Source: an uncultured Gammaproteobacteria bacterium (lineage in GTDB: Bacteria; Patescibacteriota; Patescibacteriia; Magasanikbacterales; UBA922). Taken from it: a DNA stretch of 64,000 bases. The number at the start of each line of letters is the position of its first letter. Position 1 is the first letter of the stretch. The DNA lies in assembly GCA_964433095.1 (NCBI GenBank), contig CAYSPW010000002.1, forward strand, positions 9,498 to 73,497, read 5' to 3'. The notes below the pieces were generated by a model that ran no database searches, was not told the DNA's origin, and worked only from the letters and a program-made list of their open reading frames with translations. Made by a program: the position numbers and the translations under genes. Shown here piece after piece: positions 4,918 to 63,051 of the stretch.

Positions 4918-5559
4918 ATGCCGAGCGTAAAAAAACTACTCATAATTTTCATACCGGCAATTATCATCGCCCTGGTGACTCTTAGTATAAGGGTGTTGCA
5001 ATATATTCCGACTGAAACAAAAGCGGTGGAACAAACCGATTCGGTTTATCAATCACTGATCCCAATTTTTGAAAACGACCCTATATTGGGTTCAAAAAAA
5101 GCCGGCCATACCGTAATAATCTTCGCCGATTTTGCCTGCGAAGCATGCGCGGCCCAAGATAAAATACTGGAAGATCTGATGAAAAAACATCGTGGACAAA
5201 TCAAGGTAATATGGAAAGGACTACCGGTGGCGCGTTTTCCTTTCAACTCACTGGAAGCGCATCGTTACGCCTATTGCGCCAATGAGCAAAACAAATTTGA
5301 ACAATTCGCCAAACTGACCTACACCAACTCAGACAATCTGTCAAGCGCCGCTATCGGCAGAATAGTCAATGAAATCGGCCTTGATCAAGAAAAAATGAAG
5401 CGCTGTTTGGAATCAAACCGGCCGGACGAACACATTGAATTAAACAAGCAGTTGGCCTCCTCTTTAAACATACAGGCCGTTCCGGCTATTTTTTACAATA
5501 ACAAACAACATAAAAGCCCACGGATTATTGAACAGTGGGAAGCTTTGTTAAATCTTTAA
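4918..5559 (+). CDS. DsbA/thioredoxin-like thiol-disulfide oxidoreductase, membrane anchored
   Basis: N-terminal TM helix; CxxC motif (FACEACAAQD) in thioredoxin-like context. Confidence 0.7.
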   Translation: MPSVKKLLIIFIPAIIIALVTLSIRVLQYIPTETKAVEQTDSVYQSLIPIFENDPILGSKKAGHTVIIFADFACEACAAQDKILEDLMKKHRGQIKVIWKGLPVARFPFNSLEAHRYAYCANEQNKFEQFAKLTYTNSDNLSSAAIGRIVNEIGLDQEKMKRCLESNRPDEHIELNKQLASSLNIQAVPAIFYNNKQHKSPRIIEQWEALLNL

Positions 5560-5561
5560 TT

Positions 5562-8306
5562 ATGGCCAAGTTTTTACAAATTTCTACCCTGGCGGTATTG
5601 ATTTCCACAGCAATATTTGATTTCATCCCGGCACGAGCCGCCACCGATTTTACTTACAAAACCGAGATCGCCTCCACCCCGCTCGGCGCGAACGTACAGC
5701 TGGTGGAATACGATACCGCCTGCCCTACCGGAAACGATTCCGGCTCCGATCCCAATCAAGGAATAATTATTACCAGAAACGCGGCCAGTCAAGTACGGGA
5801 AATATACTTTTACTTTCCCGGCAACAATGCGTCCGGAGTGGATCGGGAACCGGAAGATGTATGTTATTCAAATAACACCAAACTCTGCGACATTGTGAAC
5901 AACAATCAAAACTTGGCCATAGTGGCTTTTAACAAAAGCGTATCACCGCGCAACACCCGACAATGGCTGCAAGAACCGGAACACATGCGCTGTTTCATTA
6001 ACGAAGCCAAGAATAAATTAAGAGAACTGGGCGTGTCTTCCAATCGTTTGAATCTGGCCGGACACAGCGGGGGGGGACTGCAGGTCCTGCGCGCAACCAA
6101 AAATTCAGGCTTGAGCTTCAGCCGCGGCATCTTTTTTGACGCTTGCTACGGAACACAATGTTCGGACGCGGCCGCCACCGGCAGAACCGGCGACCTTTTT
6201 ATCTATTATCGGGCCGATTCCGATACCGAACAGGATTCGGTAAATACCAAAGACGGCTTTGCCGACAAAGTCAAGCTGGTCCAAACAACGGCCGCGCACG
6301 GATCCATTCCGCAATCATGCTTTTTGGATCATCTTGATAACAGTCTATGCGACGGCACCGGCACTGAGATCGGCACTCCGTTTGCGGGCGAAGCGCCACC
6401 GACCACCGAAGTTTCACCCGCCCCGGCCGGTTCCACACCGAGCGACGCGGCCGGCACAACTGACAGCTACTATTCCCAATCAGACATACAGGAATTGATT
6501 AGCGCACCACAGCCGATAATTAACATTCCCGGTCTGCAATTTTCCGATGCCGACCTGAGCCGTCTTTTCACTACCGACTACGATGAATTCGGCCGTGAAA
6601 ACACCTATTACTACTTCCCTTTCCTGGGTGAATATCTGGCCGCCGCCTACCGCTATGCCGTCGGTGCCGCCGCCATTCTGGCCATCGTGATAATTATCAT
6701 ATCCGGACTGCAATGGGCAGCTTCGGCCGGCAATCAAGAAACCATCGGCTCGGCCAAAAAGAGAATTTTTGGAGCTTTAATCGGCTTGTTTTTGGCTGTC
6801 GGTTCCTACACCATATTGTATACCATCAATCCCGAACTGACGGAATTTGCCAGTCTGAAGGTTTTAACCATAAAAGGCGAAGCGATTAATCTGGAAGGTC
6901 CTTCCGGAGACGCGGAAGAAGAAGCGGCGCGCCGCCTGCGGCGTGAAGACACTCCTCTCGGCACCACTGTTAGCGGTTCGCGACTTTTTCAACCTCCGAA
7001 CCAAGACAGCTTTTGCTTTCCGGTAGCCAAAGACGGATATGTAAAAAATACCAATAACTGGGGTCAATCCAGAGTTAAAAAAACCGGGGAAAGGGTGCGC
7101 TGCCACGCCGGAGTGGATCTGTTAACGGACGGAACCAATAACAGAGGTACGGTTTTATCAATGACCGACGGCGAAGTGATGCTGATCAGCCGCCGTTTTA
7201 CCGAATGTAAAGACGGACGTACCGAAAAAACCGGTCCCGGAACTTATGAGTGGGTGGGAGCGATATATGTCTATGACAGAAGAAACAATTTCACATATAT
7301 CTATGGCGAAATTAACAATGATACCATCAAGGTAAAAAAAGGAGATATGGTAAAAAAAGGACAAACACTCGGAATAGCATCCAAATGCACCATGCTGCAC
7401 CTGGAAGTATACGCGGGCAAAGGCAGAAAAACCGGCACTTCGATGTACGTAAGCGCCTTTGGCAAGAAAAAATCCGGCTGGTATTTGTTTGACGAACTCA
7501 AGGAACCACTTAACCTGCCCGACCAATTAAATCAAGGAAGAAACATCTGCGCTCAAGATCCGTATTTGCAAATATTGAACAAAACCGGCTCTACTCTTCT
7601 TGATCCGCGACAGTTTTTAAACAACATCAAAGACAATTTTTGCGAACCGGATAAATACTACGCTCCGCCGGCCGATACCGACGTGGAGCTCGCGATCCAG
7701 CAATTCTCTGCCTGCCACGGAATCGACTGGCGCGTTTTCAGGGAAACGGCCATGGCTGAAAGCTCGCTCCGTCCGCATGCCAAACTGGGACGATATTACG
7801 GTCTTTTTCAAGAAAGCGAGACTTATTGCAAAGAAGGATTGCGTTACGGTGATTACTCCATTGTTGGATTAAGCGTCGATAACTGCGAGAACGGATCAGC
7901 GGACGATCTAAGTGGACGCTTTGATATTCGCACCAATGTGGCCGCAGCCGCCGGATATATAAATTTTTTACTGCAGAGAATAGACAGAAAGTGCCCCGGC
8001 ATCAGCGCTTACGACGGCTTGACTTTGATGTATATCGGCCATAATAACGGCATTGGAGTAATGACCAGAATAATTACAAATATGAATGACGACAATGTAG
8101 CCTGCAACATGTCCAATATTTATCGTTACACTCGCGACTATTACATTGAACGCGGCGGCTCTGCTCATGGAGTTACTTTGCAGGAAGCTATGCGCAAATA
8201 TAATCATGGAAAAACATATATCACCGATGTACTTTTCGGCGCCAATAAAAGCGCTCCGCTTGATGTGATATTTGTGGGTAAAAATCCGCAATTGTGTCCG
8301 GATTAA
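5562..8306 (+). CDS. multidomain secreted/membrane cell-wall hydrolase: esterase-like N domain (GHSGGG), two TM helices, M23 (LytM) peptidase, SLT lytic transglycosylase
   Basis: signal peptide after internal Met (MAKFLQISTLAVLISTA); G-H-S-G-G nucleophile-elbow motif; hydrophobic helices (AILAIVIIIISGL, LIGLFLAVGSYTILY); M23 motifs (RCHAGVDL ... CTMLHLEVY); SLT-like catalytic region (AMAESSLRPHAK...YYGLFQ). Confidence 0.7.
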   Translation: MAKFLQISTLAVLISTAIFDFIPARAATDFTYKTEIASTPLGANVQLVEYDTACPTGNDSGSDPNQGIIITRNAASQVREIYFYFPGNNASGVDREPEDVCYSNNTKLCDIVNNNQNLAIVAFNKSVSPRNTRQWLQEPEHMRCFINEAKNKLRELGVSSNRLNLAGHSGGGLQVLRATKNSGLSFSRGIFFDACYGTQCSDAAATGRTGDLFIYYRADSDTEQDSVNTKDGFADKVKLVQTTAAHGSIPQSCFLDHLDNSLCDGTGTEIGTPFAGEAPPTTEVSPAPAGSTPSDAAGTTDSYYSQSDIQELISAPQPIINIPGLQFSDADLSRLFTTDYDEFGRENTYYYFPFLGEYLAAAYRYAVGAAAILAIVIIIISGLQWAASAGNQETIGSAKKRIFGALIGLFLAVGSYTILYTINPELTEFASLKVLTIKGEAINLEGPSGDAEEEAARRLRREDTPLGTTVSGSRLFQPPNQDSFCFPVAKDGYVKNTNNWGQSRVKKTGERVRCHAGVDLLTDGTNNRGTVLSMTDGEVMLISRRFTECKDGRTEKTGPGTYEWVGAIYVYDRRNNFTYIYGEINNDTIKVKKGDMVKKGQTLGIASKCTMLHLEVYAGKGRKTGTSMYVSAFGKKKSGWYLFDELKEPLNLPDQLNQGRNICAQDPYLQILNKTGSTLLDPRQFLNNIKDNFCEPDKYYAPPADTDVELAIQQFSACHGIDWRVFRETAMAESSLRPHAKLGRYYGLFQESETYCKEGLRYGDYSIVGLSVDNCENGSADDLSGRFDIRTNVAAAAGYINFLLQRIDRKCPGISAYDGLTLMYIGHNNGIGVMTRIITNMNDDNVACNMSNIYRYTRDYYIERGGSAHGVTLQEAMRKYNHGKTYITDVLFGANKSAPLDVIFVGKNPQLCPD

Positions 8307-8362: not shown

Positions 8363-9694
8363 ATGAGTGTAAAAACACCACTTTATTCATGCTCGCGTTG
8401 CGGAGCACAATTTCAAAAATGGATCGGACGCTGCCTGGAATGCGGACAATGGGGCACCATATCCCAAGAAAATCAAAATCCGGAAAAAAACAATAACAAG
8501 CCCGAGCACAGCAGCGTGAACATGCTACCATTGGATAAAATAAAAAGTGACAGCGTCAATCGGGTGGACACCAAAGCATACGAGTTGAACCGAGTTTTGG
8601 GTGGCGGCTTGGTGCCATCCAGCCTCATATTACTGGGAGGCGAACCCGGCATCGGCAAGTCCACATTGTCTTTGCAGTTGGCCTGCGGTATTGACCACAG
8701 CTTATATTTTTCAGCCGAAGAATCAACCGGACAAGTCAAATTGCGCGCCGAAAGACTGGATATTGATAAAAGCAATCTGAAACTCGCCAATATCACAAAC
8801 GTGGACGCGATCAGCGCCACCATCAAAGAAAAATCTCCCAAGCTGGCGGTGGTGGACTCAATTCAAACAATCTATTCGCAAGAATCACCGGGCGAGGCCG
8901 GCAGTCCCAACCAGGTTAGAATATGCGCCACCAAGCTGTTGGAAGCGGCTAAGCAAAACCGCACGGCGGTAATCATCGTAGGGCATGTGACAAAAGACGG
9001 AACCGTGGCCGGACCGAAAACCCTGGAACACCTGGTGGATACGGTTCTTTACTTGGAAGGAGACCGATACCACAGCTACAGAATTCTCAGAACGGTTAAA
9101 AACAGATTCGGTTCAACCGATGAGGTAGGTATTTTTGAAATGAAACCAACCGGCTTGCGCGAGGTAAAAAATCCTTCAAAAAGTTTTCTGCAGGAACGCG
9201 GACAAGATATGCCCGGCTCGGTAATCACTTGTTTGATGGAAGGAACCAGGCCGATTTTGGTGGAAATTCAAGCTTTGGTAAACAAAACCAGTTTCGGCTA
9301 TCCGGTTAGAAAATCCAGTGGTTTTGATCTAAACCGGCTTCATGTCTTAATAGCCGTACTGCAAAAAAGAGCCGGTCTGAACCTAAGCCAATACGACGTG
9401 CACTTAAATGTTGTCGGCGGATTAAGAGCTTCCGAACCGGCGGCCGATCTGGCGGTGTGCATGGCGATTGCCAGCGCTTTTAAAGACAAATCGCTGGACG
9501 GCAACTTGGCCGCATTCGGCGAAGTGGGCCTGGGCGGAGAAATACGCAAAGCATCATTTATGGAAAAAAGGATTAAAGAATGCGGACAACTGGGAATGAA
9601 CATTATTATTACTCGCTTTGACAATAATAATAACCCGAATAGCATTAAATTGTTTCAAGTGAAAAACATTTTTGAAATTATCAAACATACTTAA
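8363..9694 (+). CDS. radA: DNA repair protein RadA/Sms
   Basis: N-terminal C4 zinc ribbon (CSRCGAQF...CLECGQWG), RecA-like Walker A (GGEPGIGKST), Lon-like C-terminal domain. Confidence 0.9.
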   Translation: MSVKTPLYSCSRCGAQFQKWIGRCLECGQWGTISQENQNPEKNNNKPEHSSVNMLPLDKIKSDSVNRVDTKAYELNRVLGGGLVPSSLILLGGEPGIGKSTLSLQLACGIDHSLYFSAEESTGQVKLRAERLDIDKSNLKLANITNVDAISATIKEKSPKLAVVDSIQTIYSQESPGEAGSPNQVRICATKLLEAAKQNRTAVIIVGHVTKDGTVAGPKTLEHLVDTVLYLEGDRYHSYRILRTVKNRFGSTDEVGIFEMKPTGLREVKNPSKSFLQERGQDMPGSVITCLMEGTRPILVEIQALVNKTSFGYPVRKSSGFDLNRLHVLIAVLQKRAGLNLSQYDVHLNVVGGLRASEPAADLAVCMAIASAFKDKSLDGNLAAFGEVGLGGEIRKASFMEKRIKECGQLGMNIIITRFDNNNNPNSIKLFQVKNIFEIIKHT

Positions 9695-9742
9695 ATAAAA
9701 ACTCCATGGCAAAATTGCCACAGAGTTTGGCCCGCGCACTTG

Positions 9743-10027
9743 CTAACAATCCTTCGGTAATTTTTGCCGACGAGCCTTGCTGTCCCCGTTCTCCACATAC
9801 CCGACCGCCGAGCCGGATACCGGAACAACAACGTCATCTATCCAAGGAATGTCCAGACCGTCCCTGACCGCTTGACGCGCGCTCATCTTGTATTCGCGTT
9901 GCGCGCCGAACAATTCCTTGACAAGAACTCGCCGTCCGCCGTCCAGCTTGGTTAGCTCGTATCGTGGTTGAACCACCGTCCGCTCAGCCAATGAAATCGC
10001 TGCCGATTTCCTTCTTCCAACCATGTA
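9743..10027 (-). CDS. hypothetical small protein in locally GC-rich cassette (start at MVGRRKS preceded by GAGGAGG RBS)
   Basis: ORF with strong RBS; composition differs from flanking host genes; no family recognised. Confidence 0.35.
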   Translation of the reverse strand, partial: YMVGRRKSAAISLAERTVVQPRYELTKLDGGRRVLVKELFGAQREYKMSARQAVRDGLDIPWIDDVVVPVSGSAVGYVENGDSKARRQKLPKDC

Positions 10028-10162
10028 AACCTCCTCTTGTTTATGCATTTTGAAAAAAAGGACGCAAAAAAAATATATCAAATAAATATTTTAACGTCAA
10101 GATTAAAAAACACCCCGCTCAATAATTGATTGGGGTGAAAATACCCTATTAGCATTTTAGCA

Positions 10163-10468
10163 TTACACTCTAATTTCCATGGTTTCGGCCACCTTGAGCC
10201 AAGCCCGGCCCGAGGTAAGGCGCTTGATTCCGTCTTCGCCGATGTTTCTCTCGAGCGCTTCCATGAACATGTTCATGGAAACGGGCGAAATCATCTTGAC
10301 CCAGTTCCGCGCCTCTTCAGACACGGCCAAGTATTGGTCAGAAATTTCGCAGTCAATTAAAACTTCGCCGTTTACCACTTTGGTCATCAGGCCGGTATTG
10401 CCGGCGTCTACCAGCTCAATTACGCGAGCGATAATCATCTCTAACTCCGCTCGTTGAATCAACTTCAT
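10163..10468 (-). CDS. hypothetical small protein (GC-rich cassette)
   Basis: 101-aa ORF MKLIQRAELEMIIARVIELVDAG...; no family recognised by eye. Confidence 0.35.
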   Translation of the reverse strand: MKLIQRAELEMIIARVIELVDAGNTGLMTKVVNGEVLIDCEISDQYLAVSEEARNWVKMISPVSMNMFMEALERNIGEDGIKRLTSGRAWLKVAETMEIRV

Positions 10469-10509
10469 GCGAACCTCCTTGTTGGTATTCGGGCCGAATC
10501 CCTCCGACC

Positions 10510-10749
10510 CTAGCGTTGTGACGCAGTGAGTTTCAGCTCTCTTGCCAGCTCGGGCAAATCACCGAGCTTTACATTTAGCGACTCGCTATAGCCGCGTTTG
10601 GTCAACGCTTCCGGCCGCCGATTCGATCTTTTCGGTTCTTTTTTCTCCTCTTTTTTTTCCAGCTTCCCCTTTTTCATTCTGGCCACCTCCTTGCCCTTTG
10701 CCTTACGATTAAGGGTTAACGAAATAGGACAAATGTAATTATATCCCAT
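10510..10749 (-). CDS. hypothetical small basic K/E-rich protein (GC-rich cassette); true start possibly internal (MKKGKLEKK)
   Basis: ORF only; low complexity. Confidence 0.25.
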   Translation of the reverse strand: MGYNYICPISLTLNRKAKGKEVARMKKGKLEKKEEKKEPKRSNRRPEALTKRGYSESLNVKLGDLPELARELKLTASQR

Positions 10750-10784
10750 AATTTATCTTTTTGTCAATATGTGTACGGAATTAT

Positions 10785-12881
10785 TTACTCCAAATGCATG
10801 GTTTTTTCCCACTCCTCCACTTTTTTATTCAAACCCGGATATTTTGTAAAATCTATATCTCTAGCCGTATTCCTGGCCAATTTTATCAGCTCGCTATCCT
10901 TCATGGAAGCCAGCCGAAAATTCATCATGCCGCTTTGCGCCAGGCCGTACACGTCGCCCGGTCCTCTAAGCTGCAGGTCATACTCGGCCAACTTGAAACC
11001 ATTGGTTGTGCCGACAAAATATTTCAGCCTTTGTTCGGCTTTGTCAGAATCAGAATCTGAAAACAGGAAACAATATGACTGATGCGAACTCCTCCCCACC
11101 CTGCCTCTGAATTGATGCAATTGTGCCAGACCGAACCGTTCCGAGCCCTCAATAATCATGACCGAGGCATTGGGAACATCCACCCCCACTTCTATCACCG
11201 AGGTGGAAACAAGCACATCAATTTCGCCTTGAACAAACTTATTCATGCTCTGTTCTTTTTCTTTGGCCTCCATTTTGCCGTGCAGGTATCCGATCCGCAA
11301 ATCAGGAAAAATTTCTTTTTTCAACTTATCGTATTCGTTCATAACCGATTTTTTCTCGTCGCCAAAATGCAGGCTACGCGCGTCAGCTTGACCTTGGTTT
11401 TCCTCAATCAGCGGACAAACCACAAAAACTTGCCTGCCTTGCTTGACTTGCTCTTTGATAAAATCATAGGCTTTGTGTCGCAAATTCGGTTCCACCAATC
11501 TGGTAATGATGGCCTTTCTGCCTTTAGGCAACTGAGATATTATGGATATATCCAAATCTCCGTACAAAGTAAGGGCGAAAGAACGCGGTATGGGAGTGGC
11601 GGTCATGGATAAAAAATGCGGCATGGTTTCTTTGTTCCCCGACTGGTGCTTGATTTTTTTACGCTGCTCAACACCGAAGCGATGCTGCTCATCCACAATG
11701 ACCAATCCCAAATCTTTAAATTTTACTTCATCCACCAACAAAGCGTGCGTGCCCACCAACAGATCCACTTTCCCTTGCTTTATCATTTCCAATTTTTTTC
11801 TTCTATCCGCCGCTTTGGTTTTTTGCTTTTCATTCATATTATTAATCAAAGCATACTCTCTGGTCAGCAAACCCACGGATAAATTTTTTCCCAACAAGGA
11901 ACATAGTGAATCGTAATGTTGCTTGGCCAAAATTTCTGTCGGCGCCATCATGGCCGTTTGCAGACCGTTTAGCGCGGTGCTATAGATAGCCATGGCCGCC
12001 ACTACCGTTTTGCCCGAACCCACATCCCCTTCCAGCATCCGATTCATCGGACAGGTCTGTTGCAAATCCCGCAATATTTCCCATGCCGCCACTTTCTGCG
12101 CGTCAGTCAAAGTAAAAGGCAGGCCGTCCACGAATACTCTGATCGGCCGCTTTTTAAACTTAATGGAGGTGGCCTTGTCCTTTTTAATACTCTGTCGCAT
12201 CATTTCCGCCCTCAACTGCAAGATAAAAAGCTCGTCAAACTTTAACCTGAATTCCGCCTTTTCCAGCCGCCCGGCGTCTTCCGGAAAATGAATTGATCTC
12301 AGTGCTTCATGCAACGATAACAAACCTAATTTTTGCAATATTTCTCCAGGCAGCCAATCTTCAATTTTTTCTACATAATCAATCACCTGCGAAATCAAAA
12401 AACGCAACTGTTTTTGCGTGATGCCGCTAGTGAGCGAATAAATGGGTACGATTCTCGCCGTATGCACGCTTTCGTTTTTGGCTTTTTCATAAGAGGGTGA
12501 AATCATCCGCATACCAAACATGGAATCGGTAACTTTGCCGGATAAATACACGCTGTCGCCGGCACGCAGATTCTTGATTAAAAAAGGCTGCCCGAACCAG
12601 ACCGCTTGAACGCGCTCGCTTTCATCGGCCACAACCGCTTCGGTAATTATTCTTCTGGTGCGCGGACTGCGCTTGTTGTCAATCAGCTCAACTTTTCCTT
12701 TGATAGTTACTTGGTCGCCGTTTTTTAAATCCGCTATTTTAATGGTACGCGAATAATCTTCGTAGCGAAAAGGAAAATAGTATATGAGGTCATTGACATT
12801 CAATATACCCAATCGCTTAAGTCGGGACTGTAAGGCTTTGCCGATTCGATTTAATTTTATTACCGAAGTATTTAAATTCAT
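10785..12881 (-). CDS. recG: ATP-dependent DNA helicase RecG
   Basis: N-terminal wedge/OB region, DEAD/DEAH helicase motifs (GDVGSGKTVVAAMA, DEQHRFG), helicase C domain; length 698 aa. Confidence 0.9.
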   Translation of the reverse strand: MNLNTSVIKLNRIGKALQSRLKRLGILNVNDLIYYFPFRYEDYSRTIKIADLKNGDQVTIKGKVELIDNKRSPRTRRIITEAVVADESERVQAVWFGQPFLIKNLRAGDSVYLSGKVTDSMFGMRMISPSYEKAKNESVHTARIVPIYSLTSGITQKQLRFLISQVIDYVEKIEDWLPGEILQKLGLLSLHEALRSIHFPEDAGRLEKAEFRLKFDELFILQLRAEMMRQSIKKDKATSIKFKKRPIRVFVDGLPFTLTDAQKVAAWEILRDLQQTCPMNRMLEGDVGSGKTVVAAMAIYSTALNGLQTAMMAPTEILAKQHYDSLCSLLGKNLSVGLLTREYALINNMNEKQKTKAADRRKKLEMIKQGKVDLLVGTHALLVDEVKFKDLGLVIVDEQHRFGVEQRKKIKHQSGNKETMPHFLSMTATPIPRSFALTLYGDLDISIISQLPKGRKAIITRLVEPNLRHKAYDFIKEQVKQGRQVFVVCPLIEENQGQADARSLHFGDEKKSVMNEYDKLKKEIFPDLRIGYLHGKMEAKEKEQSMNKFVQGEIDVLVSTSVIEVGVDVPNASVMIIEGSERFGLAQLHQFRGRVGRSSHQSYCFLFSDSDSDKAEQRLKYFVGTTNGFKLAEYDLQLRGPGDVYGLAQSGMMNFRLASMKDSELIKLARNTARDIDFTKYPGLNKKVEEWEKTMHLE

Positions 12882-12952: not shown

Positions 12953-12965
12953 GCGTGGTGCACCC
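12953..12965 (+). repeat. 13-bp direct repeat GCGTGGTGCACCC (putative attL core), identical to tRNA-Arg 3' end copy at 25791..25803
   Basis: exact 13/13 match (15/16 with one mismatch) seen at both edges of the GC-rich block. Confidence 0.6.
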
Positions 12966-13470
12966 AAGTTCGGTTTTTCAGAACTCAGGCAGTTGTATCT
13001 CGAGGCCAAACGTGCCGTGACCGAGCTCCAGAAGACCTCGGTGTATGAGCAGCTTGTCACTCCAGAGATGGCGGCACAACTTCATTGATGGCGGTCACTC
13101 CTTTCCCTCCCTGAAACCTCTCCATTCGCTAGAATATTATTAGTAATCGTTAATCTTATCACATATGTCAGTCCGTCTTCAGGTTCAGTCGATGTAGCTT
13201 CCACCGTTTGACACCCGCCTTGATCTCTTTGACTGGCCAACCTGTCAGGCTCTCGATCTCTCCAATCTTGAAACCTACTACTGTATACATATACCAAAGA
13301 TTGTGCCTGGTGAAATCAAGAGACACCGAAGTGGAGGTTTCTTCGAATAGTTTCATATGTTTACAGAATGCCAGACTGAGGAGAATTTGTCAATAATAGG
13401 CAAAGTTTACAACCCTTTACCCCCAAATACGACATTGATGTCGGAGTTGCCTGTGGTGGCAAAGCTGACT

Positions 13471-15186
13471 CTAGCTCGCGATGTGGGCTTCATGGTTGAG
13501 CTTCTCGAAGAACTGTCTGGGGGTATCATAGGAATCTAGAAAGCGGGGTCCCTTATTGTATGCTATGTTCCAGCACCAATATGCCGCACATGCCTGAAAC
13601 CAAGTCGGATTCTCATCCTCCAAATCAAACACTTCAAATACAGAACGGATTCTCTGGTCTGCATCAGGGTGAGTTCTCGATTCTATGTCTTCATCAAGTA
13701 GTAGAAGAGCAGAAACTGACGTGATTCCGCCTGTAATGACAGTAGAACGCTTCGATGATACAAGACTGGCTTCCTGCAAGACCTCGGCAGCATATTCATC
13801 AGCAGCAGTTTCGTCCTGTTTACTATCCTTCATCGCAGAAGGTTCAGTTGACGTATGACCAAGGGCGACATGACCAATCTCATGTGCAAGGGCAAAGATG
13901 GTGGCATACAACAGGATTCCGTTTACCTTCTCGATGTACTCATCTTGATCTGGGTCATACAACTCTGGATTTGGTAGGTTCTTGTCCCACTCTGAAAACA
14001 CTTTCTTGAGACTCATTGCATAGTGGAAGAGTTTCTCCGCCCTTTGCAGGTACTCTGGTCTTGGGGTCATGCCTTGAGCAGTTTTATTCATGCCTTCATC
14101 AGCAACCACAATGAGACAGTAGCACATACACCAAAGGTAGGACAGAAAGGTCTCGGAAATGGATATCTTCGTACCACGGACGTGAGGGAGCATGTTCTCC
14201 GCAAGGAGTGGGCTGTTTGAGATATGATAGTCAATTCCATTGTCGAGACCGTGGTTGGTAATGACCTCCAACCATTTCTCCAAGGCTCCATCATGGCAGT
14301 TTTCAAGCTCATGAATGATGTTGTGCTGTAGTACCCTCACGGGCTGTTCGCCTTTATGGACTTCTGCAAGATAGCGGTTGACTTTCATTTGATTCTCTAC
14401 CTCTTCACTGGGCTTCATTCCACCGTTGGTAAGCAGACCGCCTTTCTTCCAAGAAGAAATGTCATATTCTTCGCCTGCTAGGTAGTTCTCTTGCTCTTTG
14501 TCTAGTGTTAGATCTGCCGGTCCAACATAAGCTAACATATTAGTTGGTGGACCATGTAACCTCTTGAACTGAAATCCCTCTCTCACCTGAGACAGGATAT
14601 TGATCCGTTGCTCTGGTCTCGTTTCGTTGCAGTAACGAAGAACACTGTCCCACGTAAATATCTTAAGATCTTCATTTTCTAGTGTGACAAGTCGATCACG
14701 CAGTGCTCTATCATATTCGATGGCTTTGTCACGGCCAATCACTAACACGTATCTGAACTTGACTCCATTACTTCCCAGTGGCTTTCTGATTGGTTCGATG
14801 CGCCGAAGTACCTCGCTGGTATTTCGTTTGATAAACTCACGATAGGTGTTGATTTGCGACAGGGCCTCTGTTAGGTCGGCTGATTGAACCAATATGCCAC
14901 TACTACGCTTGCTTCGAAACAAGAGCTTCGAAGGTGTCTTGATTTCAACAATCACGAAATGCCACTTTGTTGAGCTCTTTGTCAAATATGCAAAGTCAGG
15001 TTTATCCGCGGTATCCAAACTGAACTGAGAGATGAGACAACGAAAGTGCAGATGGTGATTTAGAAGGAATGCTAGCGGCAGAGATTCTGGTTCCTCTTCG
15101 AATAGTCGCTCTCTCTTAGACTTGTATCGGCCAACATGCTTTCTAACTTTTGTCTTGGTGAAGTAGTCATCGAATCGATACTCCAT
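13471..15186 (-). CDS. fusion protein: N-terminal PD-(D/E)xK nuclease (Shedu/DUF4263-like motif PD...IVEIK) plus C-terminal HExxH zinc metallopeptidase (ImmA/IrrE-like HEIGHVALGH)
   Basis: motifs ADKPDFAYL...WHFVIVEIKTP and LAHEIGHVALGHTS read directly from translation. Confidence 0.55.
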   Translation of the reverse strand: MEYRFDDYFTKTKVRKHVGRYKSKRERLFEEEPESLPLAFLLNHHLHFRCLISQFSLDTADKPDFAYLTKSSTKWHFVIVEIKTPSKLLFRSKRSSGILVQSADLTEALSQINTYREFIKRNTSEVLRRIEPIRKPLGSNGVKFRYVLVIGRDKAIEYDRALRDRLVTLENEDLKIFTWDSVLRYCNETRPEQRINILSQVREGFQFKRLHGPPTNMLAYVGPADLTLDKEQENYLAGEEYDISSWKKGGLLTNGGMKPSEEVENQMKVNRYLAEVHKGEQPVRVLQHNIIHELENCHDGALEKWLEVITNHGLDNGIDYHISNSPLLAENMLPHVRGTKISISETFLSYLWCMCYCLIVVADEGMNKTAQGMTPRPEYLQRAEKLFHYAMSLKKVFSEWDKNLPNPELYDPDQDEYIEKVNGILLYATIFALAHEIGHVALGHTSTEPSAMKDSKQDETAADEYAAEVLQEASLVSSKRSTVITGGITSVSALLLLDEDIESRTHPDADQRIRSVFEVFDLEDENPTWFQACAAYWCWNIAYNKGPRFLDSYDTPRQFFEKLNHEAHIAS

Positions 15187-15207
15187 TCGCTGATGCCTCT
15201 AACATTT

Positions 15208-18200
15208 TCACAACCAATCACAGTACACCTTGAAATACTCCCCATCCGATTCCCAGGTGCAGGGATCATCCCCACCTTCATCGAACTCTCCGTCACAGTC
15301 ATTGTCCCAGCCACCCAACTCATAGTCGTGCATGGCAGGATTGTTCTGCTCTGACCCATCCGCCCACATCCAGAAGGTCGAGTTTGCCGGGCATGTGTTG
15401 GTTGTGTAGATGAAGAACACACCTCCGGCTTCCTCGCAGATCACTCGGGGATCGTTGTCGATGTTGTCGAAGGGGTTGTCGTCACAATCTCCTCCCAGTG
15501 TCTCGGTGCAGTGGGGATTCTCCGAAGGCTCACATGGCGCGACCTCACAGTAGCAGTCCCAATCGTTATCAATCTGGTCAGCTGTGAAATCTGAGTGACC
15601 GGCATTCTCTCCCGATTCATTGCTATCTATTGCACCATGTAGATCCTGTTGACACACCCCATTCCAACCCGCTTCGTGCTCAGGACAGAAAAGACAGGAG
15701 CTTTGGTTTGAAGTTCGTGCTCCACTGGCGTAGTATTCAACTCCATCGAAAGAAACTGCGAAAGAGGAAGTCTCTTTGCATTTGTCTGGGCCCAAGTCCG
15801 TCCAGTAGAAATCTCCTGTACGAGAGTCGCTAGCCGAGCCGATGTCCAGATAGTGGTCGGCGATGGTCACATCATCGTTACACCGGCGGAAAGCAAACCG
15901 AAAGGGGACGTAGGAGCGACAGTTGATGCAACCCTGGTAAGGAGCATCACCAGACCATATCTCTGGTAGGTCGTACTCCAGCCAGCCATCGCTATCTGTA
16001 TCAGATATCGCTATCTCAACGTGATTGAAGGTGTCATCAGCCCATCTACTCCAGCCAATCACACAGGGGGTGACGTTTTCAAACGGTGTTCCATCTTGGA
16101 GATCAAACTCTGTTGGCAGGATGAGGATTCTACCATTGTCATTCGGATCAAACCGAATCGCGCAGGCATTGTCCTCACACGGTCCGAGAGGTTCACAGAC
16201 CCCTGCAACACATTGCTCATTGAAGCCACAGGCAGGACAGGTCACCTCATCACCACATCCATTGTCCCAGGTACCACAGTCATGGCCGAGATCAGCGCAT
16301 GACTGAAGAGTACAACACTCGCCTTCGTAGCAGATATCTACCCCAGTACAATCACCACACTCCAGCGACATTCCGCAACCGTTGTCCGGTGTCCCGCATT
16401 CGCTCACCAGACACTCCCTGGGTACACAAACACAGAATCCATTCTGACATTCCTCTTGAGCGAGCTCGTCGCAGATTCCACATTCGAGGGTTTCTCCACA
16501 GCCGTCGGGCCACGGTCCACAGGAATTCGAACCTATCGCTTCGCAAGTCGTCGGTGTGCAACCTGCACAAGTATTACCTGAACAGCCATAGGTGCAGGTG
16601 ATCGCGTTTCCCCAGTCCAGACAGTCGTCTGGATCAAAATCGCCACATGTTTCCTCAATACCATCCACACAGCGGGTCTCGTCAATCATATCGCATTCGT
16701 CGGAGCAGGTGGTCACACATGTTCCTGTCAGGTCACAGGTCTCACCAATGCCGCATCCTCCGCACTCGAGAGTGTCACCACAGCCATTCGGCCAGTCTCC
16801 GCACTCCACCTGGAGACTGATGCAGGTGTCCGGAGCGCAGCATGAGTTTTCGTAGCAGACGCCATCCGGGCAAGAAGTTGGACTGCTCCATTCTAAACAT
16901 TCATCCTGGTCGTGGTTGCCACAGGTTTGGATCAGCTCTCCCGTACACTGAGTCCTTCCTTGGGGAAGGCAGTCATCGGTGCAAGTGTCTTGGCATTCGC
17001 CTCCACGACAAATTCGGTTCAGGCCACACTCAAGTCCATCAGTCTCAACAGGACAGTTCTGTTCTTCTGTTACACCTTGGCTGTAATCGCAAGATCCGTC
17101 TACACAGGACACTGTTGGTACATACCTAGATTGTGTGCCGTTCTCATCGCAGACATTCTCGATTGAAAGACACTCAGACCACTCACCGGGGATTGGCTCG
17201 GGACAGTCTGAAGCCTCGGTACACTCCGGCATATCACCACAATGAGAGCTGTCTTCGAAGTCTGCTATCGTGAGACTTGATTGTTGTTGTCCAAGCCACC
17301 TTCGGTCAACGCTGGATGGAATAGAAACGAAGTCTGTGACGATGTAACCAGCCCGAGCAAGTTCTGCCTGGCTCATGTTGAGCTGTCTGATCTCGTGGTT
17401 GAACAAAGTCACATAGTAGTTGCCTTGGTGTTTAAGGAGAAAGCCGGGGTGATAGGCAGCCTCTTCGACCAGCGATCTCTTCAGATCCCAGACTTCACCT
17501 CCTCCAAGCTCGGCATCTCTTCCCCAGCTAAGTGCCAGTTGTTCAAAGGTGCTTTCGTTGACCTTACCGACTTCGCGATCGTAGCTGAGTCCATCATAGT
17601 AAGCGTAGAGCGTTCCATTTCGCACAAACGCCTGAAAACTGACTGTTTCTGTAGCCAGATTGTATTCCTCACAGAGAGGATAACAACGAAGCTCCTCCTC
17701 TGAGACAAAGATATTGAGACCCAAATCGAACGCGTCTGGATCCTCAAGATTGTCTGGATTGGCAATGTAACGAAGGCAACCGTCTTCAAGAAGGTAGAGA
17801 CAGTTGACTTCACTATCTCCACCTTCGTGAACACAAAGGCCACTCTGGGTTTGAATGAGACTGCCATCAGGGTGCCAGAAGATACCTCTTTCTTCACAAC
17901 GACCGTTAACACAAGTCGACTCAGCACAGTCTACCAACAACGACCCTCTCTCCTCACATGAATTGTACCAGTATACATCACCCTCATAACATCGGAAGTC
18001 TGCTCTAGGAGTACATGGAGTAGGACATTCTGGATCCTCAGTATCTACCAAACCATCGCAGTCGTCATCCAGACCATTATCACAGAACATCTCCTCATCA
18101 AGACAATCGCCTCCAGTCTCCTCTCCGACACGGAACTGAGTGACGTAGTCTGGGATGTCATACTGTCGATTATCCTCAGTATGTACGAACATATCTATTT

Positions 18201-19659
18201 CATAAGGAGCTTCCGGTAGCCCATCCAATTCTATGATATGAAAAGCAAAGTCCCACATGTCGTAGCCTTCTGTGATTTGTGAAGGAAAAATCCACTCGGT
18301 ATCCCCAGATATCTCAACATCACCTATTGCAAGATTGTACACGATATAGTGAATGCGGTGGTTTCTCTGAGGTGCATCCACTCTAGCCGATATGAACACA
18401 GTATCTCCAACGCCAAAACCGTTACCTTCACCATACTCACTACCATTACAACGATAGAACCAGTCGGCATTGGGTGTCGGCCTTTCGGTGCAAATTGTCG
18501 GGTTTGGATAGTAAATTGATGGGCTATTTACTACATAACCCGGATCGTATGGGCCTCTCTGAACACGATATGAAAAAACCACTTCTGGATCATCTGAATA
18601 TTCGGTGAATCCACCACCTGTGTCGACAAATACCCTGAAGATCCATCTCGTCCACTTTCTCTCGGGAGTCCCGATCCTCTTGAGATCATCATGAACCCGT
18701 ACATTCTCAAAGGTGACATGAAGGATTGATTCACCTGATGGTTCGCGCCATTCCGTGTTCCAGCTCCAATCCAGGCAGTATTCTTCGTGACTATTTTCTG
18801 CAGCACAATCCTCTGTTCCCTCACGATAAGCCTCTACTCGATAACGATGTGCGACATCAATGTCGAAAACAGCAAGGCTATGTACCGTGTCGCCTGAGAA
18901 TATTTCATACGAGGGGTTTTCCTGTGCAACTAAAACATTTTCGTTGTCTAAATGAGATATCCCCCCAGCACTTCTACCCATTTCTAGACCGCACGTGTCA
19001 TCATTTAGAAGGTAAGTGCAAGAGATTGGGTTGAGGTTAGAAGGGACAAATCGAACATTGTTTCTTTCCGTAAAACCGTCATGCCAACCTCGGTGCAGTT
19101 CGGTCATCTTCGTATTTCCTATTTTTACATCCTTCAGCATCTGGTTCGTTTCTAATCCACTGTCAAGGTGTGCTAACTGTTGGTGAAGATGCGATCCATC
19201 TGAGTAACCACTGTTTCCAAGTATACCGACCATCTCGCCCTTTGATACATAGCCCTTTTCCAAAACTCCCTGTGGAATCGACCCCTCCTTCAGATGTGCT
19301 AGTTTGACCGAATAGCCCGCGCCAAAGTCAATCTCAATATAGCAGCCAAAAGACAGTACATCTGTCCCGAATGTGTTGGGGCAAAGCGCATTACGTGATT
19401 TCAACACCTTACCTGATACCGGAGAGACAATCTGTACTTCAGTTTGATTACCCCCCTGACGAATTTGATCATCCCAATCAAGAGAATAGAATCCGTTTCC
19501 TATATGAGTGTCAGATTCGCCACAGCCAACGGTAAGGTACCATTGTAAGCCTGATGGCATCGCCGAATCGTAGCTTGCGCCTAGATATTGAGCACTTGCA
19601 GCTTTGGCAAGAAGGAACAAAGTCACTACACAGCATGTTAATTCCGCTACCTGTCTCAT
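15208..19659 (-). CDS. giant (1483 aa) secreted cysteine-rich protein with N-terminal M23 peptidase domain and tandem Cys-rich modules
   Basis: signal peptide (LLAKAASAQ); M23 motifs (GNGFYSLDWD...GSHLHQQ); more than 100 Cys; repeated C-G-x-W-x-x-G-C-G-x-x-L-x-C-G-x-C units; acidic CxDxxDxD calcium-binding-like segments. Confidence 0.7.
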   Translation of the reverse strand: MRQVAELTCCVVTLFLLAKAASAQYLGASYDSAMPSGLQWYLTVGCGESDTHIGNGFYSLDWDDQIRQGGNQTEVQIVSPVSGKVLKSRNALCPNTFGTDVLSFGCYIEIDFGAGYSVKLAHLKEGSIPQGVLEKGYVSKGEMVGILGNSGYSDGSHLHQQLAHLDSGLETNQMLKDVKIGNTKMTELHRGWHDGFTERNNVRFVPSNLNPISCTYLLNDDTCGLEMGRSAGGISHLDNENVLVAQENPSYEIFSGDTVHSLAVFDIDVAHRYRVEAYREGTEDCAAENSHEEYCLDWSWNTEWREPSGESILHVTFENVRVHDDLKRIGTPERKWTRWIFRVFVDTGGGFTEYSDDPEVVFSYRVQRGPYDPGYVVNSPSIYYPNPTICTERPTPNADWFYRCNGSEYGEGNGFGVGDTVFISARVDAPQRNHRIHYIVYNLAIGDVEISGDTEWIFPSQITEGYDMWDFAFHIIELDGLPEAPYEIDMFVHTEDNRQYDIPDYVTQFRVGEETGGDCLDEEMFCDNGLDDDCDGLVDTEDPECPTPCTPRADFRCYEGDVYWYNSCEERGSLLVDCAESTCVNGRCEERGIFWHPDGSLIQTQSGLCVHEGGDSEVNCLYLLEDGCLRYIANPDNLEDPDAFDLGLNIFVSEEELRCYPLCEEYNLATETVSFQAFVRNGTLYAYYDGLSYDREVGKVNESTFEQLALSWGRDAELGGGEVWDLKRSLVEEAAYHPGFLLKHQGNYYVTLFNHEIRQLNMSQAELARAGYIVTDFVSIPSSVDRRWLGQQQSSLTIADFEDSSHCGDMPECTEASDCPEPIPGEWSECLSIENVCDENGTQSRYVPTVSCVDGSCDYSQGVTEEQNCPVETDGLECGLNRICRGGECQDTCTDDCLPQGRTQCTGELIQTCGNHDQDECLEWSSPTSCPDGVCYENSCCAPDTCISLQVECGDWPNGCGDTLECGGCGIGETCDLTGTCVTTCSDECDMIDETRCVDGIEETCGDFDPDDCLDWGNAITCTYGCSGNTCAGCTPTTCEAIGSNSCGPWPDGCGETLECGICDELAQEECQNGFCVCVPRECLVSECGTPDNGCGMSLECGDCTGVDICYEGECCTLQSCADLGHDCGTWDNGCGDEVTCPACGFNEQCVAGVCEPLGPCEDNACAIRFDPNDNGRILILPTEFDLQDGTPFENVTPCVIGWSRWADDTFNHVEIAISDTDSDGWLEYDLPEIWSGDAPYQGCINCRSYVPFRFAFRRCNDDVTIADHYLDIGSASDSRTGDFYWTDLGPDKCKETSSFAVSFDGVEYYASGARTSNQSSCLFCPEHEAGWNGVCQQDLHGAIDSNESGENAGHSDFTADQIDNDWDCYCEVAPCEPSENPHCTETLGGDCDDNPFDNIDNDPRVICEEAGGVFFIYTTNTCPANSTFWMWADGSEQNNPAMHDYELGGWDNDCDGEFDEGGDDPCTWESDGEYFKVYCDWL
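16225..16830 (-). repeat. four tandem ~40-codon Cys-rich repeat units inside the giant gene (CG[DPT]W[PD][ND]GCG[DE]xLxC)
   Basis: repeated nucleotide strings such as ccattcggccagtctccgcactc / cagccgtcgggccacggtccacagg / catccattgtcccaggtacc on + strand. Confidence 0.5.
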
Positions 19660-19712
19660 CTCGCTTGCTCCTTCTTAACGTCTATGTACATGCCACCACC
19701 TGATATCTTCAC

Positions 19713-20447
19713 TCAGTATTCCACACTAGACACGATCTGCTTGAAAACTTGATAGAGTTCGTTGCTCTCTATCTGTCCCAGCAGTTCTTGATTGCATCCA
19801 TGGATATCCTGGTATGTGTATTTGCCGGTGATATCGTCTGATTTGAGTAGTGTGCCAACATTAGAAAGATAGACTACGAATAATACGTTCGGGTATTCCT
19901 TTGTTTGGTTCTGAACCAGTCCCTTCAAGTACACATTCGAAAGCGAAGGTTTCCTTAAGTAATCCTCACTTTCTCCGTAGTCAAAGAAAACCTGATATAT
20001 GAAGGCGTTATTGGATACTACTTCAGGATCACAGTGGAGATCTTCGTTCTCGGATTCGAGTTGTTCCCCCAATGAACCATTGAGTTCAAATTCTCGTGCT
20101 CCAAAAGATGGCGAATATTCACTCGAGCCAATTGATACATCCCACGTTTCAGCCCGAATGTAGATAGATTTTCCTGTTTCCTGGTGACGGAGAGTGATTC
20201 TGATCACCCTACCTGAATCACCATCATTGGACGATTGAACAAGATTTGTACTTTCTGTGTCTTCGATTTCCCAACTATTAGGATAATGAAAGCGGATATC
20301 AAGTTCTTCATTATAATAAACATTTAGGTTGTCTGGATTCCTTTCATCTTTCAATGCTGGAGACTCGCACGCAACACAAAATAGCATCACTGTAAGGGTG
20401 AATAGGGCAACGAGTATTACGCTGTAAATTTGCGGTTGTTTCATGTT
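19713..20447 (-). CDS. hypothetical secreted/lipoprotein-like protein (start at MKQPQIYSV, signal peptide ending ...LFCVAC)
   Basis: N-terminal hydrophobic signal with Cys after it; no family recognised. Confidence 0.45.
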   Translation of the reverse strand, partial: NMKQPQIYSVILVALFTLTVMLFCVACESPALKDERNPDNLNVYYNEELDIRFHYPNSWEIEDTESTNLVQSSNDGDSGRVIRITLRHQETGKSIYIRAETWDVSIGSSEYSPSFGAREFELNGSLGEQLESENEDLHCDPEVVSNNAFIYQVFFDYGESEDYLRKPSLSNVYLKGLVQNQTKEYPNVLFVVYLSNVGTLLKSDDITGKYTYQDIHGCNQELLGQIESNELYQVFKQIVSSVEY

Positions 20448-20502
20448 GTATCCTTTGATGTCATTTAGACATGACGCGATCGCTGTGTCAGTTCGCTTGT
20501 CT

Positions 20503-23034: not shown

Positions 23035-23083
23035 TCGAGCCTCCTCTTGAGAGATTCTAGCAAATGCTGCCAGCCAATAAATG

Positions 23084-23902
23084 CTATTTTCGTGGCATCT
23101 TCAGTTTCTTGAGCTTTGCCCTTTTCTTCTTCTTACCCCATATGTTCTTAGTTTTTCTTTGTTGAGTCGAAAATTCATATACTATCTCCTCATAGGTCAG
23201 GCCTGGATGTATTACAGGAATTGCCGATCGCGCAAACTTCTGTTTCAAAGAGAGCTCACCAGATTTGGGTAAGATGACGCACGCGAGATCATACATTCTA
23301 AACTTCAAATCACCACGAACGCGCCATTCTCGCTCCCAAGTGAAATCGTATCTCTCATGCATGGCGTTGATAAAAGGAAGAAGTCTCCATATTTTACCCT
23401 TATGGAAGCCACCTTTTTTTGCAACGTTGAACAGACTATCGACAGCTTCACGCAACCACGTATTATCATTGTAGCTGTTGATGTAAATGGCCGGCTGAGC
23501 GCCCTTTGAAATAATGAACTCGCGACTGAACACGAACCCATACTCCTCGAACTGGTTATTTCGACCTGGAATACGTTGAGTGAGTAGATGAATTTGTGTG
23601 AGTGGAATCTCCGAAAAGCAACAAACACTGAACCTCTCTTGATACCTATCTGGTATGTCCTTCGCAAACAAGCAGTGAGGTAGATAGGCTGAGATTTGGC
23701 GTTCCTCAAGAATTGCGCGAAAGTTCTCTTTTGCTGACCCACCCGACTCACCAAACGTATTTGTATCGTTCCGTGTTAGGTGAACCACGAATTTCGAGAT
23801 GTCTTCGCGTCCGCTGACAGCAAATCCTCTTGAACCCATGACAAGACCAGAAGTAGATTTTGTGATAGCGCAGCAGTTAAGAGTACTTGAACATACGGCC
23901 AA
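23084..23902 (-). CDS. hypothetical protein, DarT/AbiGi-like abortive-infection family candidate (H ... Y-G-F-V-F ... E-R-E-W-R order)
   Basis: FVVHLTR, VCCFSEIPL, YGFVFSREF, WEREWRVRG segments; resemblance judged from memory only. Confidence 0.4.
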   Translation of the reverse strand: MAVCSSTLNCCAITKSTSGLVMGSRGFAVSGREDISKFVVHLTRNDTNTFGESGGSAKENFRAILEERQISAYLPHCLFAKDIPDRYQERFSVCCFSEIPLTQIHLLTQRIPGRNNQFEEYGFVFSREFIISKGAQPAIYINSYNDNTWLREAVDSLFNVAKKGGFHKGKIWRLLPFINAMHERYDFTWEREWRVRGDLKFRMYDLACVILPKSGELSLKQKFARSAIPVIHPGLTYEEIVYEFSTQQRKTKNIWGKKKKRAKLKKLKMPRK

Positions 23903-23971
23903 GAGTCAACAGTACCACTGATTGCATGAAGTTCCCCTCCACAAGATTCCTACTTCTGCTACGATGATGGA

Positions 23972-24172
23972 ATGAAAAACACAGTACCTGACAATCTACC
24001 TGTCATCCACGATGACCAAAAGGCTCTTCCCCAGGTCCCTCCAGAATTCTCAGAGAAACAAAGCAAGGCGCTCATCACCTTCCTCCTCACATTGAGAAAG
24101 ATTGCGGAAGATCTTATGGCTGAGGGATACACCTACGAAAACGGAGAGGTCATACCACCGAAACAGGATTGA
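23972..24172 (+). CDS. small hypothetical protein upstream of recombinase (possible directionality factor, unproven)
   Basis: 66-aa ORF co-oriented 38 bp upstream of serine recombinase. Confidence 0.3.
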   Translation: MKNTVPDNLPVIHDDQKALPQVPPEFSEKQSKALITFLLTLRKIAEDLMAEGYTYENGEVIPPKQD

Positions 24173-24210
24173 TGTGGTGGAGTAGTATCCACTGGATAAC
24201 CTAACATCAT

Positions 24211-59426: not shown

Positions 59427-60005
59427 CTATTTCCAGTAAAGCCCGTCCACTTTCCACTCTCCGTATTGTTTAATCAGATCAATTGTACCGGACAGATTTT
59501 CCACTTCCTGAGAATCCGCCGTTTCGGTAATTCTTTGCGCTTCCAGCTCCAATTCCGCCATGGTATCGGTTAAGGACAATACTCTGGAAGCGATGACCCG
59601 GGTAGTGACGCCGCGGTAATCGACCGACTGTTCCTCCCTTTGCGTATTCATCCACGCGGCCATTTTATCGGTAACCAAAGGCAGAGTATCTTCTACGTGT
59701 CGGTTGTCGTTTTGGTTGGAATATGTGCCGAAGCGCTCCACGAAAATTCTAGCCATTTGCTTGACATAAATATCTTCACTGTAGGGTTCGGTCCGCGTCT
59801 CGCTCGGCATTTGTCGGCCCATTTGTTCGCGCACGTCCCGGTCAATTTGTTCAACTTCTTGCTCGGCCGTTACCGGTTCGGCTTGCCGGTCGGTCTCAGG
59901 CGCCTGTTCGGATTTGAAAAAAAACATATACAGAAGCAAAACCGACAGCACTATACCCACGACAATGCCGACAACCATAAATATTCTTTTTCTAATATCC
60001 ATCAT
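59427..60005 (-). CDS. hypothetical membrane-anchored protein (single N-terminal TM, acidic periplasmic domain)
   Basis: ORF adjacent to VirB4-like gene; no family recognised. Confidence 0.4.
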   Translation of the reverse strand: MMDIRKRIFMVVGIVVGIVLSVLLLYMFFFKSEQAPETDRQAEPVTAEQEVEQIDRDVREQMGRQMPSETRTEPYSEDIYVKQMARIFVERFGTYSNQNDNRHVEDTLPLVTDKMAAWMNTQREEQSVDYRGVTTRVIASRVLSLTDTMAELELEAQRITETADSQEVENLSGTIDLIKQYGEWKVDGLYWK

Positions 60006-60016
60006 ATATTTTAAAA

Positions 60017-61894: not shown

Positions 61895-61906
61895 AAATAA
61901 CTTTTT

Positions 61907-62593: not shown

Positions 62594-62599
62594 AAAAAT

Positions 62600-63049: not shown

Positions 63050-63051
63050 AG

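Follow-up and report, generated by a model that had tools for sequence, protein, structure and literature searches.

Three small genes, here named A, B and C, were identified in the 1,090 bp gap between the convergent genes radA (plus strand) and recG (minus strand) of a Candidatus Magasanikbacteria (Patescibacteria) contig, of which a window of 64,000 nucleotides, i.e. the whole stretch of DNA considered here, was analysed. The explanation that we favour, with moderate confidence, is that A, B and C, fixed in the chromosome, are true small-protein genes of one Candidatus Magasanikbacteria subclade, and it includes a guess at their function. One gain in the ancestor of this clade followed by vertical descent fits the distribution of the trio. 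To judge from the searches made, the three genes belong to no described family and lie on no known mobile element, and their products diverge several times faster than those of the flanking repair genes.

A sequence-only reading of the window had placed three minus-strand open reading frames (ORFs) between radA and recG, and this placement was borne out, with C at 93 amino acids (94 in that reading), B at 101 and A at 55. The raw minus-strand ORFs of the gap extend over 9743-10081, 10163-10468 and 10510-10749, and the ATG codons with a ribosome-binding site were chosen as gene starts (Table 1). The alternative 79-amino-acid start of A (10749) falls within a 12/12 match to the sigma-70 promoter (10767-10738), which makes the 55-amino-acid form the likely product. 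The strong GAGGAGG ribosome-binding site that had been pointed out for the first ORF, C, is indeed present, 5 nt ahead of its ATG, and the spacer between the stop codon of A and gene B is 41 nt long.

The nearest relatives of the window RecG were found in Candidatus Magasanikbacteria metagenome-assembled genomes (MAGs), at 69% identity at most, and a metagenome scan with recG returned no relative closer than 62%. In total, 46 recG/radA loci were fetched, some of them duplicates and all with a RecG of at least 49% identity, and the convergent recG-radA arrangement is kept in them. The closest species-level relative is locus L002 (WJJZ01000010.1), with 69% identity in RecG and 71% in RadA, the latter protein being 71–72% identical to its counterparts in L002 and a further locus, L162. 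The 996 bp gap of L002 has the same layout as that of the window, i.e. promoter, A′ (48 amino acids), B′ (106 amino acids), terminator, second promoter, C′ (85 amino acids) and terminator. The order in L162 is recG, A″ (53 amino acids), B″ (101 amino acids), a terminator-promoter block, C″ (76 amino acids) and convergent radA; the contig of L163 carries A″-B″, and the 903 bp fragment L164 consists of the terminator-promoter block, C‴ (88 amino acids) and convergent radA. All lineages of the clade that were open to examination have the trio at one and the same site between recG and radA, L164 presenting the C unit only.

Orthologues of B were P0008 (L002) and P0009 (L162/L163), those of C were encoded in L002, L162 and L164 (P0011 in the last), and positional orthologues of A were present in L002 and L162. 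Alignments of the window proteins with those of L002 scored above 2000 of 2000 shuffles, with z-values of 6.5 (A), 15.8 (B) and 7.3 (C). For B, the match to the orthologue in L002 had an E-value of 4e-12 in BLASTP, and in an exhaustive phmmer search the orthologue match had an E-value of 9.5e-9. Neighbour-joining trees of RadA placed the window, L002, L162 and L164, i.e. all carriers, in one clade, and its sister, L084, has a recG/radA gap of 146 bp. When the ORFs of about 160 other recG loci were scanned with profiles made from the trio sequences, no additional homologue came up, and no paralogue of A, B or C was found within the window, where each gene is present in a single copy.

As the nearest lineages share the trio, the carriers are monophyletic and the guanine-plus-cytosine (GC) content of the cassette tracks that of its host, the trio is not a recent acquisition. 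The likeness to a small, recently acquired DNA segment that the sequence-only reading had seen in the cassette is thereby largely contradicted: when the radA-recG spacing was compared between related genomes, the trio was conserved at the same site in the nearest lineages L002 and L162, with the C unit in L164, and the GC content of the cassette followed the host.

On sequence evidence, the three ORFs are real protein-coding genes. The motif (A/G)GGAGG is located 5–9 nt before the ATG in 10/10 genes of the four loci, and the ORF lengths are alike. When the three full cassettes were compared all against all in six frames, the annotated frames were among the four top segment pairs in each of the three comparisons, and they were the top three pairs in two of these, the exception being one pair in which B antisense outscored C. 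Identical ORFs are annotated in L002 by GenBank as “hypothetical protein” (MBD3311626-28). If the ORFs were chance frames and the conserved element were non-coding, for instance a structured RNA, the GC richness of the cassette would be accounted for, since GC-rich intergenic blocks of AT-rich genomes are often RNA genes, and several other recG/radA gaps, e.g. those of L028 and L014, are GC-rich without a clear ORF. We regard this as very improbable, as all ten genes retain their length, start codon and Shine-Dalgarno site and similarity is seen at the protein level, mostly within the annotated frames. At the DNA level, similarity across the coding parts of the trio was undetectable, which counts against a conserved RNA. 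At the gathering score, Rfam covariance models identified only tRNAs, both in the window and in the ten related loci scanned with it, and none of these matches fell in the recG/radA gaps.

By prediction, transcription proceeds in two units, one of A and B and one of C, both with a sigma-70-like promoter and a hairpin terminator (Table 1). In the promoter scan, counterparts of promoter P1 were found after the recG stop codon in L002 (TTGAAA-16-TATAAT) and in L162. Genes A and B have a common promoter and a common terminator, and are spaced by 24–41 nt across the loci. The terminator after B, T1, has a fold energy of −13.3 kcal/mol (z = −2.8), with counterparts of both the hairpin and the U-tract in L002, L162 and L164, and the terminator-promoter block between B and C was alignable in all four loci. 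All the hairpins of these loci were stable when folded. The second terminator, T2 (−17.6 kcal/mol, z = −3.2), has counterparts in L002 and L162 and could serve both convergent genes, C and radA. Near-consensus promoters together with strong Shine-Dalgarno sites suggest, with low confidence, that expression may be high and constitutive.

Identity among the carriers was 71–83% for RadA and 75–82% for the C-terminus of RecG, as against 38–57% for A, 25–35% for B and 27–41% for C. Length, charge and scattered invariant Gly, Pro, Trp, Arg and hydrophobic positions are retained in the trio proteins, with isoelectric points (pI) across all lineages of 10.1–11.4 (A), 4.85–4.96 (B) and 9.3–9.8 (C). Protein A consists of a Lys/Arg-rich N-terminal half of low complexity, probably a disordered tail, and a C-terminal part with the conserved motif P-L-x-K-R-G-[YF] ... 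[LF]-[GA]-D-L-P. Readings of A as a HicA protein and of its C-terminus as a ribbon-helix-helix were both discarded, the conserved part being too short and no model giving a match. Protein B is acidic and probably globular. The predicted core of C is strand-strand-strand-helix (residues 22–54), followed by the conserved motif G-x-[AG]-V-[GD]-[YHW], and the AlphaFold model of C reached a predicted local distance difference test (pLDDT) score of about 80 for residues 21–60 only.

In the sequence-only reading no family was recognised for any of the ORFs, and scans against Pfam, PHROGs, NCBIfam and PADLOC agree with this, as nothing fell below an E-value of 0.02 or recurred across the orthologues when A, B, C and their orthologues were queried. 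Sub-threshold and inconsistent matches to bPH_4, enoyl-CoA hydratase, EACC1 and Dynamin_N were rejected. Profile searches of the PDB with A, B and C gave nothing significant. When 1.84 billion representative proteins were searched exhaustively with phmmer, A, B and C being concatenated into one query (the E-values being slightly conservative), only orthologues were returned, and P0009 (B, 36% identity) and P0011 (C, 38% identity) were thereby added; a match to P0010, a tandem-repeat protein of 617 amino acids, was spurious. A word-indexed search of 5.8 billion sequences returned the query itself and P0008 only, and scanning metagenomes for a pattern taken from the B alignment yielded no hit. 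No relative of A, B or C was detected in the IMG/VR viral contigs, nor was B or C matched when phage and plasmid collections were queried by tblastn. Clustered with A at 90% identity (P0003) is also a PHP-domain protein of 562 amino acids from a Pyrinomonadaceae MAG (HEX2272068.1), which is probably a clustering artefact of a Lys/Glu-rich low-complexity stretch.

The sequence-only reading had also set a GC-rich cassette against AT-rich flanks. At the level of the region this contrast proved weak: the GC content of 9700–10760 is 48.4% in comparison to 45.6% for the window (84th percentile of equal-sized windows), and neither radA (46.6%) nor recG (44.6%) is AT-rich. The part that stood is at the level of the ORFs, where both GC content and GC content at third codon positions (GC3) are raised. 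The GC content of A, B and C is 49.4, 50.3 and 55.3%, respectively, against 45.7±2.9% for 45 long ORFs (z = 1.3, 1.6 and 3.3), and the respective GC3 values are 0.57, 0.66 and 0.585 against 0.50±0.04. Against host-gene chunks of 100 codons, B alone is extreme (top 2%), with A and C within the top 13–17%. The corresponding GC3 values in L002 are 0.41, 0.47 and 0.395 (host 0.30±0.05), all three within the top 0–4% of chunks, and in L162 0.52, 0.41 and 0.36 (host 0.29). An excess in GC3 of about 0.07–0.23 over the host is present in 3/3 trio genomes (window 9743–10677; L002 8154–9011; L162 531–1378), being more marked in the AT-richer relatives. Cassette and host GC contents in the three trio genomes are 48.4/45.6, 41.0/36.8 and 43.1/39.2%, and this tracking of the host is indicative of long residence. 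That raised GC3 might mark highly expressed genes is a guess; genes for ribosomal proteins and elongation factors, which would set the codon bias of such genes, are absent from the window, and its ORFs of highest GC3 are the serine recombinase and the TraG-like ATPase together with the genes around it. Codon selection, mRNA structure or exchange between lineages may lie behind the GC3 excess.

An older foreign origin is compatible with the favoured explanation, as it concerns the origin of the trio only. The trio could be the domesticated remnant of a small foreign insert that came into the recG/radA gap in the ancestor of the clade, i.e. mobile-element or phage cargo that was retained after losing its mobility, and we rate this as unlikely, though worth keeping in view. 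The size of the recG/radA gap varies from 19 bp to 4.5 kb in the fetched loci, and with gaps of 19–150 bp in about 20 of the 46, the junction would seem to have been empty in its ancestral state. Several lineages have unrelated inserts at the junction, many of which are GC-richer than their hosts. The GC3 of the cassette exceeds that of the host in each of the three genomes, and the search of 1.84 billion proteins indicated that homologues are absent outside the clade. In the gap of the trio, however, no integrase, transposase or recombinase gene and no att-like sequence was found, and no direct or inverted repeats bound the trio, the only repeats found being of low complexity or Shine-Dalgarno sites. 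Phage, plasmid and viral-contig collections hold no relatives. Moreover, at identities of 25–57% the synonymous sites are expected to be saturated and equilibrated, so that the GC3 excess is unlikely to be a relic of the composition of a donor. What survives of the proposed acquired origin is thus an old single gain, made plausible by the narrow clade, the variable junction and the persistent GC3 excess, and not a recent one.

The unrelated content of the junction is diverse. The gaps of L004, L029 and L030 contain IMPDH and a protein of about 800 amino acids. Unrelated GC-rich units were identified in L003 (8104-8719, equal to L082; 49.7% against 36.9% for the genome), with a small ORF of 68 amino acids, and in L099 (about 7116-7677; 54.8% against 38.5%), with a small ORF of about 85 amino acids, and both are composed of an own promoter, a long 5′ leader, the small ORF and a terminator. 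Further unrelated GC-rich units are located in the gaps of L040, L008, L022, L028, L014 and L035, those of L028 and L014 being without a clear ORF, and no Rfam family was matched in these GC-rich gap units. The junction could act as a hotspot of new small genes or of RNAs not yet described. The recurrence of such units at this site and the lasting GC3 excess of the trio are the more unusual of the observations. If the recG/radA gap is a general nursery for new small genes, it offers a tractable place to study the origin and fixation of orphan genes.

Another explanation is that A and B form a new module resembling toxin-antitoxin or other conflict systems, in which one protein inhibits growth and the other neutralises it, with C as a regulator or a third component. 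Divergence far faster than that of the flanking genes would then reflect an arms race. In keeping with such a module, A and B are small, co-transcribed and opposite in the charge of their products, the small gene C next to them has a promoter of its own, the junction varies in content, and GC3 is raised like that of the mobile genes in the window. We nevertheless hold such a module to be improbable. No toxin, antitoxin or defence model of Pfam, NCBIfam or PADLOC was matched, and no DNA-binding antitoxin domain is recognisable. The trio is single copy, strictly syntenic and monophyletic, whereas modules of this kind typically have a patchy distribution and several copies. Genes A and B do not overlap, lie 24–41 nt apart and have each their own Shine-Dalgarno site. 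Their charge order, basic upstream and acidic downstream, is the reverse of that in most type II pairs. The resemblance to toxin-antitoxin or anti-defence mini-cassettes that had been noted from size and arrangement is thus not upheld: in addition to the reversed charge order, there is no family match, no relative in phages, plasmids or viral contigs, no second copy and no bounding repeat.

Under the favoured explanation, that of fixed small-protein genes of the clade, the co-transcribed A and B would probably give a bound pair of basic A with acidic B, although confidence in this is low. Protein A and the separately transcribed, basic C, with its small beta-sheet-plus-helix core, would most likely bind nucleic acid, which again is proposed with low confidence. 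As the trio is stably linked to recG and radA, both of them genes of branch migration and recombination, the most economical guess at its role, equally at low confidence, is the handling of DNA or of the nucleoid. A more specific proposal, to which we give little credence, is that the trio is a small-protein system, not described before, that joins RecG and RadA in acting on branched DNA, for example in the modulation of recombination or in the processing of transforming DNA in these host-dependent bacteria, or else represents a new fast-evolving conflict module that became fixed at the junction, and that its GC3 is selected instead of ancestral; selection would in this case act via expression level or mRNA structure. 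If the linkage to recG and radA is functional, the trio would be tied to recombination in organisms thought to be dependent on DNA uptake.

Several points weigh against the favoured explanation. The trio is known from only four lineages, two of which are represented by short contigs. The AlphaFold model of B (two sequences, pLDDT 42) was unusable and that of C was partial, and fold searches with the predicted core of C matched no solved fold. A basic charge by itself argues only weakly for nucleic-acid binding, and the linkage to recG and radA may mean simply that the convergent gap tolerates insertions, as other Magasanikbacteria have unrelated genes in it, IMPDH included. Plain vertical descent, furthermore, leaves the GC3 excess in all three genomes unexplained, and this excess resembles that of the mobile-element genes in the window, where the serine recombinase and the TraG-like genes have the highest GC3.

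Apart from the trio, the window contains acquired DNA on the other side of recG. A segment of about 12.8 kb from recG to tRNA-Arg(GCG) is bounded by an exact 13 bp direct repeat, GCGTGGTGCACCC, the second copy of which is the 3′ end of the tRNA gene, and a large serine recombinase gene abuts tRNA-Arg(GCG) (Table 1). In L002, L003, L035 and L040, no more than about 600 bp separate recG from an upstream tRNA-Arg(GCG), and in the last three the tRNA gene is its immediate upstream neighbour; this identifies the segment as an insertion in the window genome, probably an integrated island. The fusion protein of 571 amino acids encoded in it, with a Shedu-like nuclease and a U49 peptidase domain, looks by its domain matches like defence-type cargo of the island. 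A second mobile or conjugative element may be represented in part by the region of the TraG/VirB4-like P-loop ATPase, which is located among uncharacterised neighbours and has, together with the serine recombinase, the highest GC3 of the window. Upstream of radA, a protein of 923 amino acids is encoded with a weak T4SS-pilin-like (type IV secretion system) segment and Peptidase_M23; its gene is syntenic in L002, L003 and L162, which marks a conserved neighbourhood and not an island.

Table 1. Positions of the trio genes, their predicted signals, the flanking genes and other features of the window.
Feature	Position	Strand	Description
gene A	10510..10677	-	55 amino acids, pI 10.1; Shine-Dalgarno AAGGAGG at 10692-10686
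gene B	10163..10468	-	101 amino acids, pI 4.85; Shine-Dalgarno AAGGAGG at 10480-10474
gene C	9743..10024	-	93 amino acids, pI 9.8; Shine-Dalgarno GAGGAGG at 10036-10030
promoter P1 (A-B unit, predicted)	10738..10767	-	TTGACA-18 nt-TATAAT, 12/12; begins 17 nt past the recG stop codon
terminator T1 (intrinsic, after B, predicted)	10105..10137	-	CACCCC...GGGGUG then U6
promoter P2 (C unit, predicted)	10072..10100	-	TTGACG-17 nt-TATATT, TG upstream; abuts T1
terminator T2 (predicted)	9699..9728	-	stem of 13 bp; within the 48 nt that separate the stop codons of C and radA
radA	8363..9694	+	443 amino acids; Pfam Zn_ribbon_LapB, AAA_25, ATPase, Lon_C/ChlI; convergent with the cassette
recG	10785..12881	-	698 amino acids; Pfam RecG_wedge, DEAD, Helicase_C, RecG_dom3_C; upstream, on the cassette strand
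gene of 923-amino-acid protein	5535..8306	+	upstream of radA
probable integrated island	12953..25803		recG to tRNA-Arg(GCG)
direct repeat, first copy	12953..12965		13 bp
direct repeat, second copy	25791..25803		13 bp; 3′ end of tRNA-Arg
island fusion protein	13471..15186	-	571 amino acids; Shedu SduA_C nuclease (residues 39-183, E = 5e-19) and Peptidase_U49/M48-like metalloprotease (residues 348-518, E = 4e-10)
large serine recombinase	24211..25857		abuts tRNA-Arg(GCG)
possible part of second mobile or conjugative element	59427..63960	-	uncharacterised genes around the ATPase
TraG/VirB4-like P-loop ATPase	60017..61894	-	within the preceding region

Three kinds of known systems are comparable to the trio. 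Small basic proteins associated with the nucleoid or with nucleic acids and having disordered Lys/Arg tails are like A and C in composition only, both proteins being small and basic, A with such a tail, and their genes having strong expression signals; unlike that class, however, A, B and C have no homology in Pfam or the PDB to HU, IHF, Lsr2, H-NS, Sso7d-like or ribosomal proteins. Type II toxin-antitoxin modules, HicA/HicB among them, are generally known as two adjacent, co-transcribed small genes that diverge fast, as is the case for A and B, and the HicAB order of a small basic protein followed by a larger acidic one is shared as well. The trio differs from HicA/HicB in giving no sequence match and in that the conserved part of A, about 25 residues, is too short for the HicA fold, and from type II modules at large in being single copy, vertically inherited and not mobile.

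The trio also resembles the taxonomically restricted orphan small-protein genes of the candidate phyla radiation (CPR), catalogued as “genomic unknown” families in protein-family surveys (PMC6744442, PMC9132574). It is alike in encoding products of 48–106 amino acids, annotated as “hypothetical protein” and without relatives in Pfam, NCBIfam or the PDB, and in its restriction to a narrow clade of uncultured Patescibacteria. The trio adds three uncharacterised, clade-restricted families to the large unknown fraction of Patescibacteria genomes, which is useful for annotation and not surprising. It is set apart from the CPR orphan genes as a fixed, syntenic module of two predicted operons, with regulatory signals conserved in four lineages, a constant basic/acidic/basic charge pattern and an excess of GC3 over the host.

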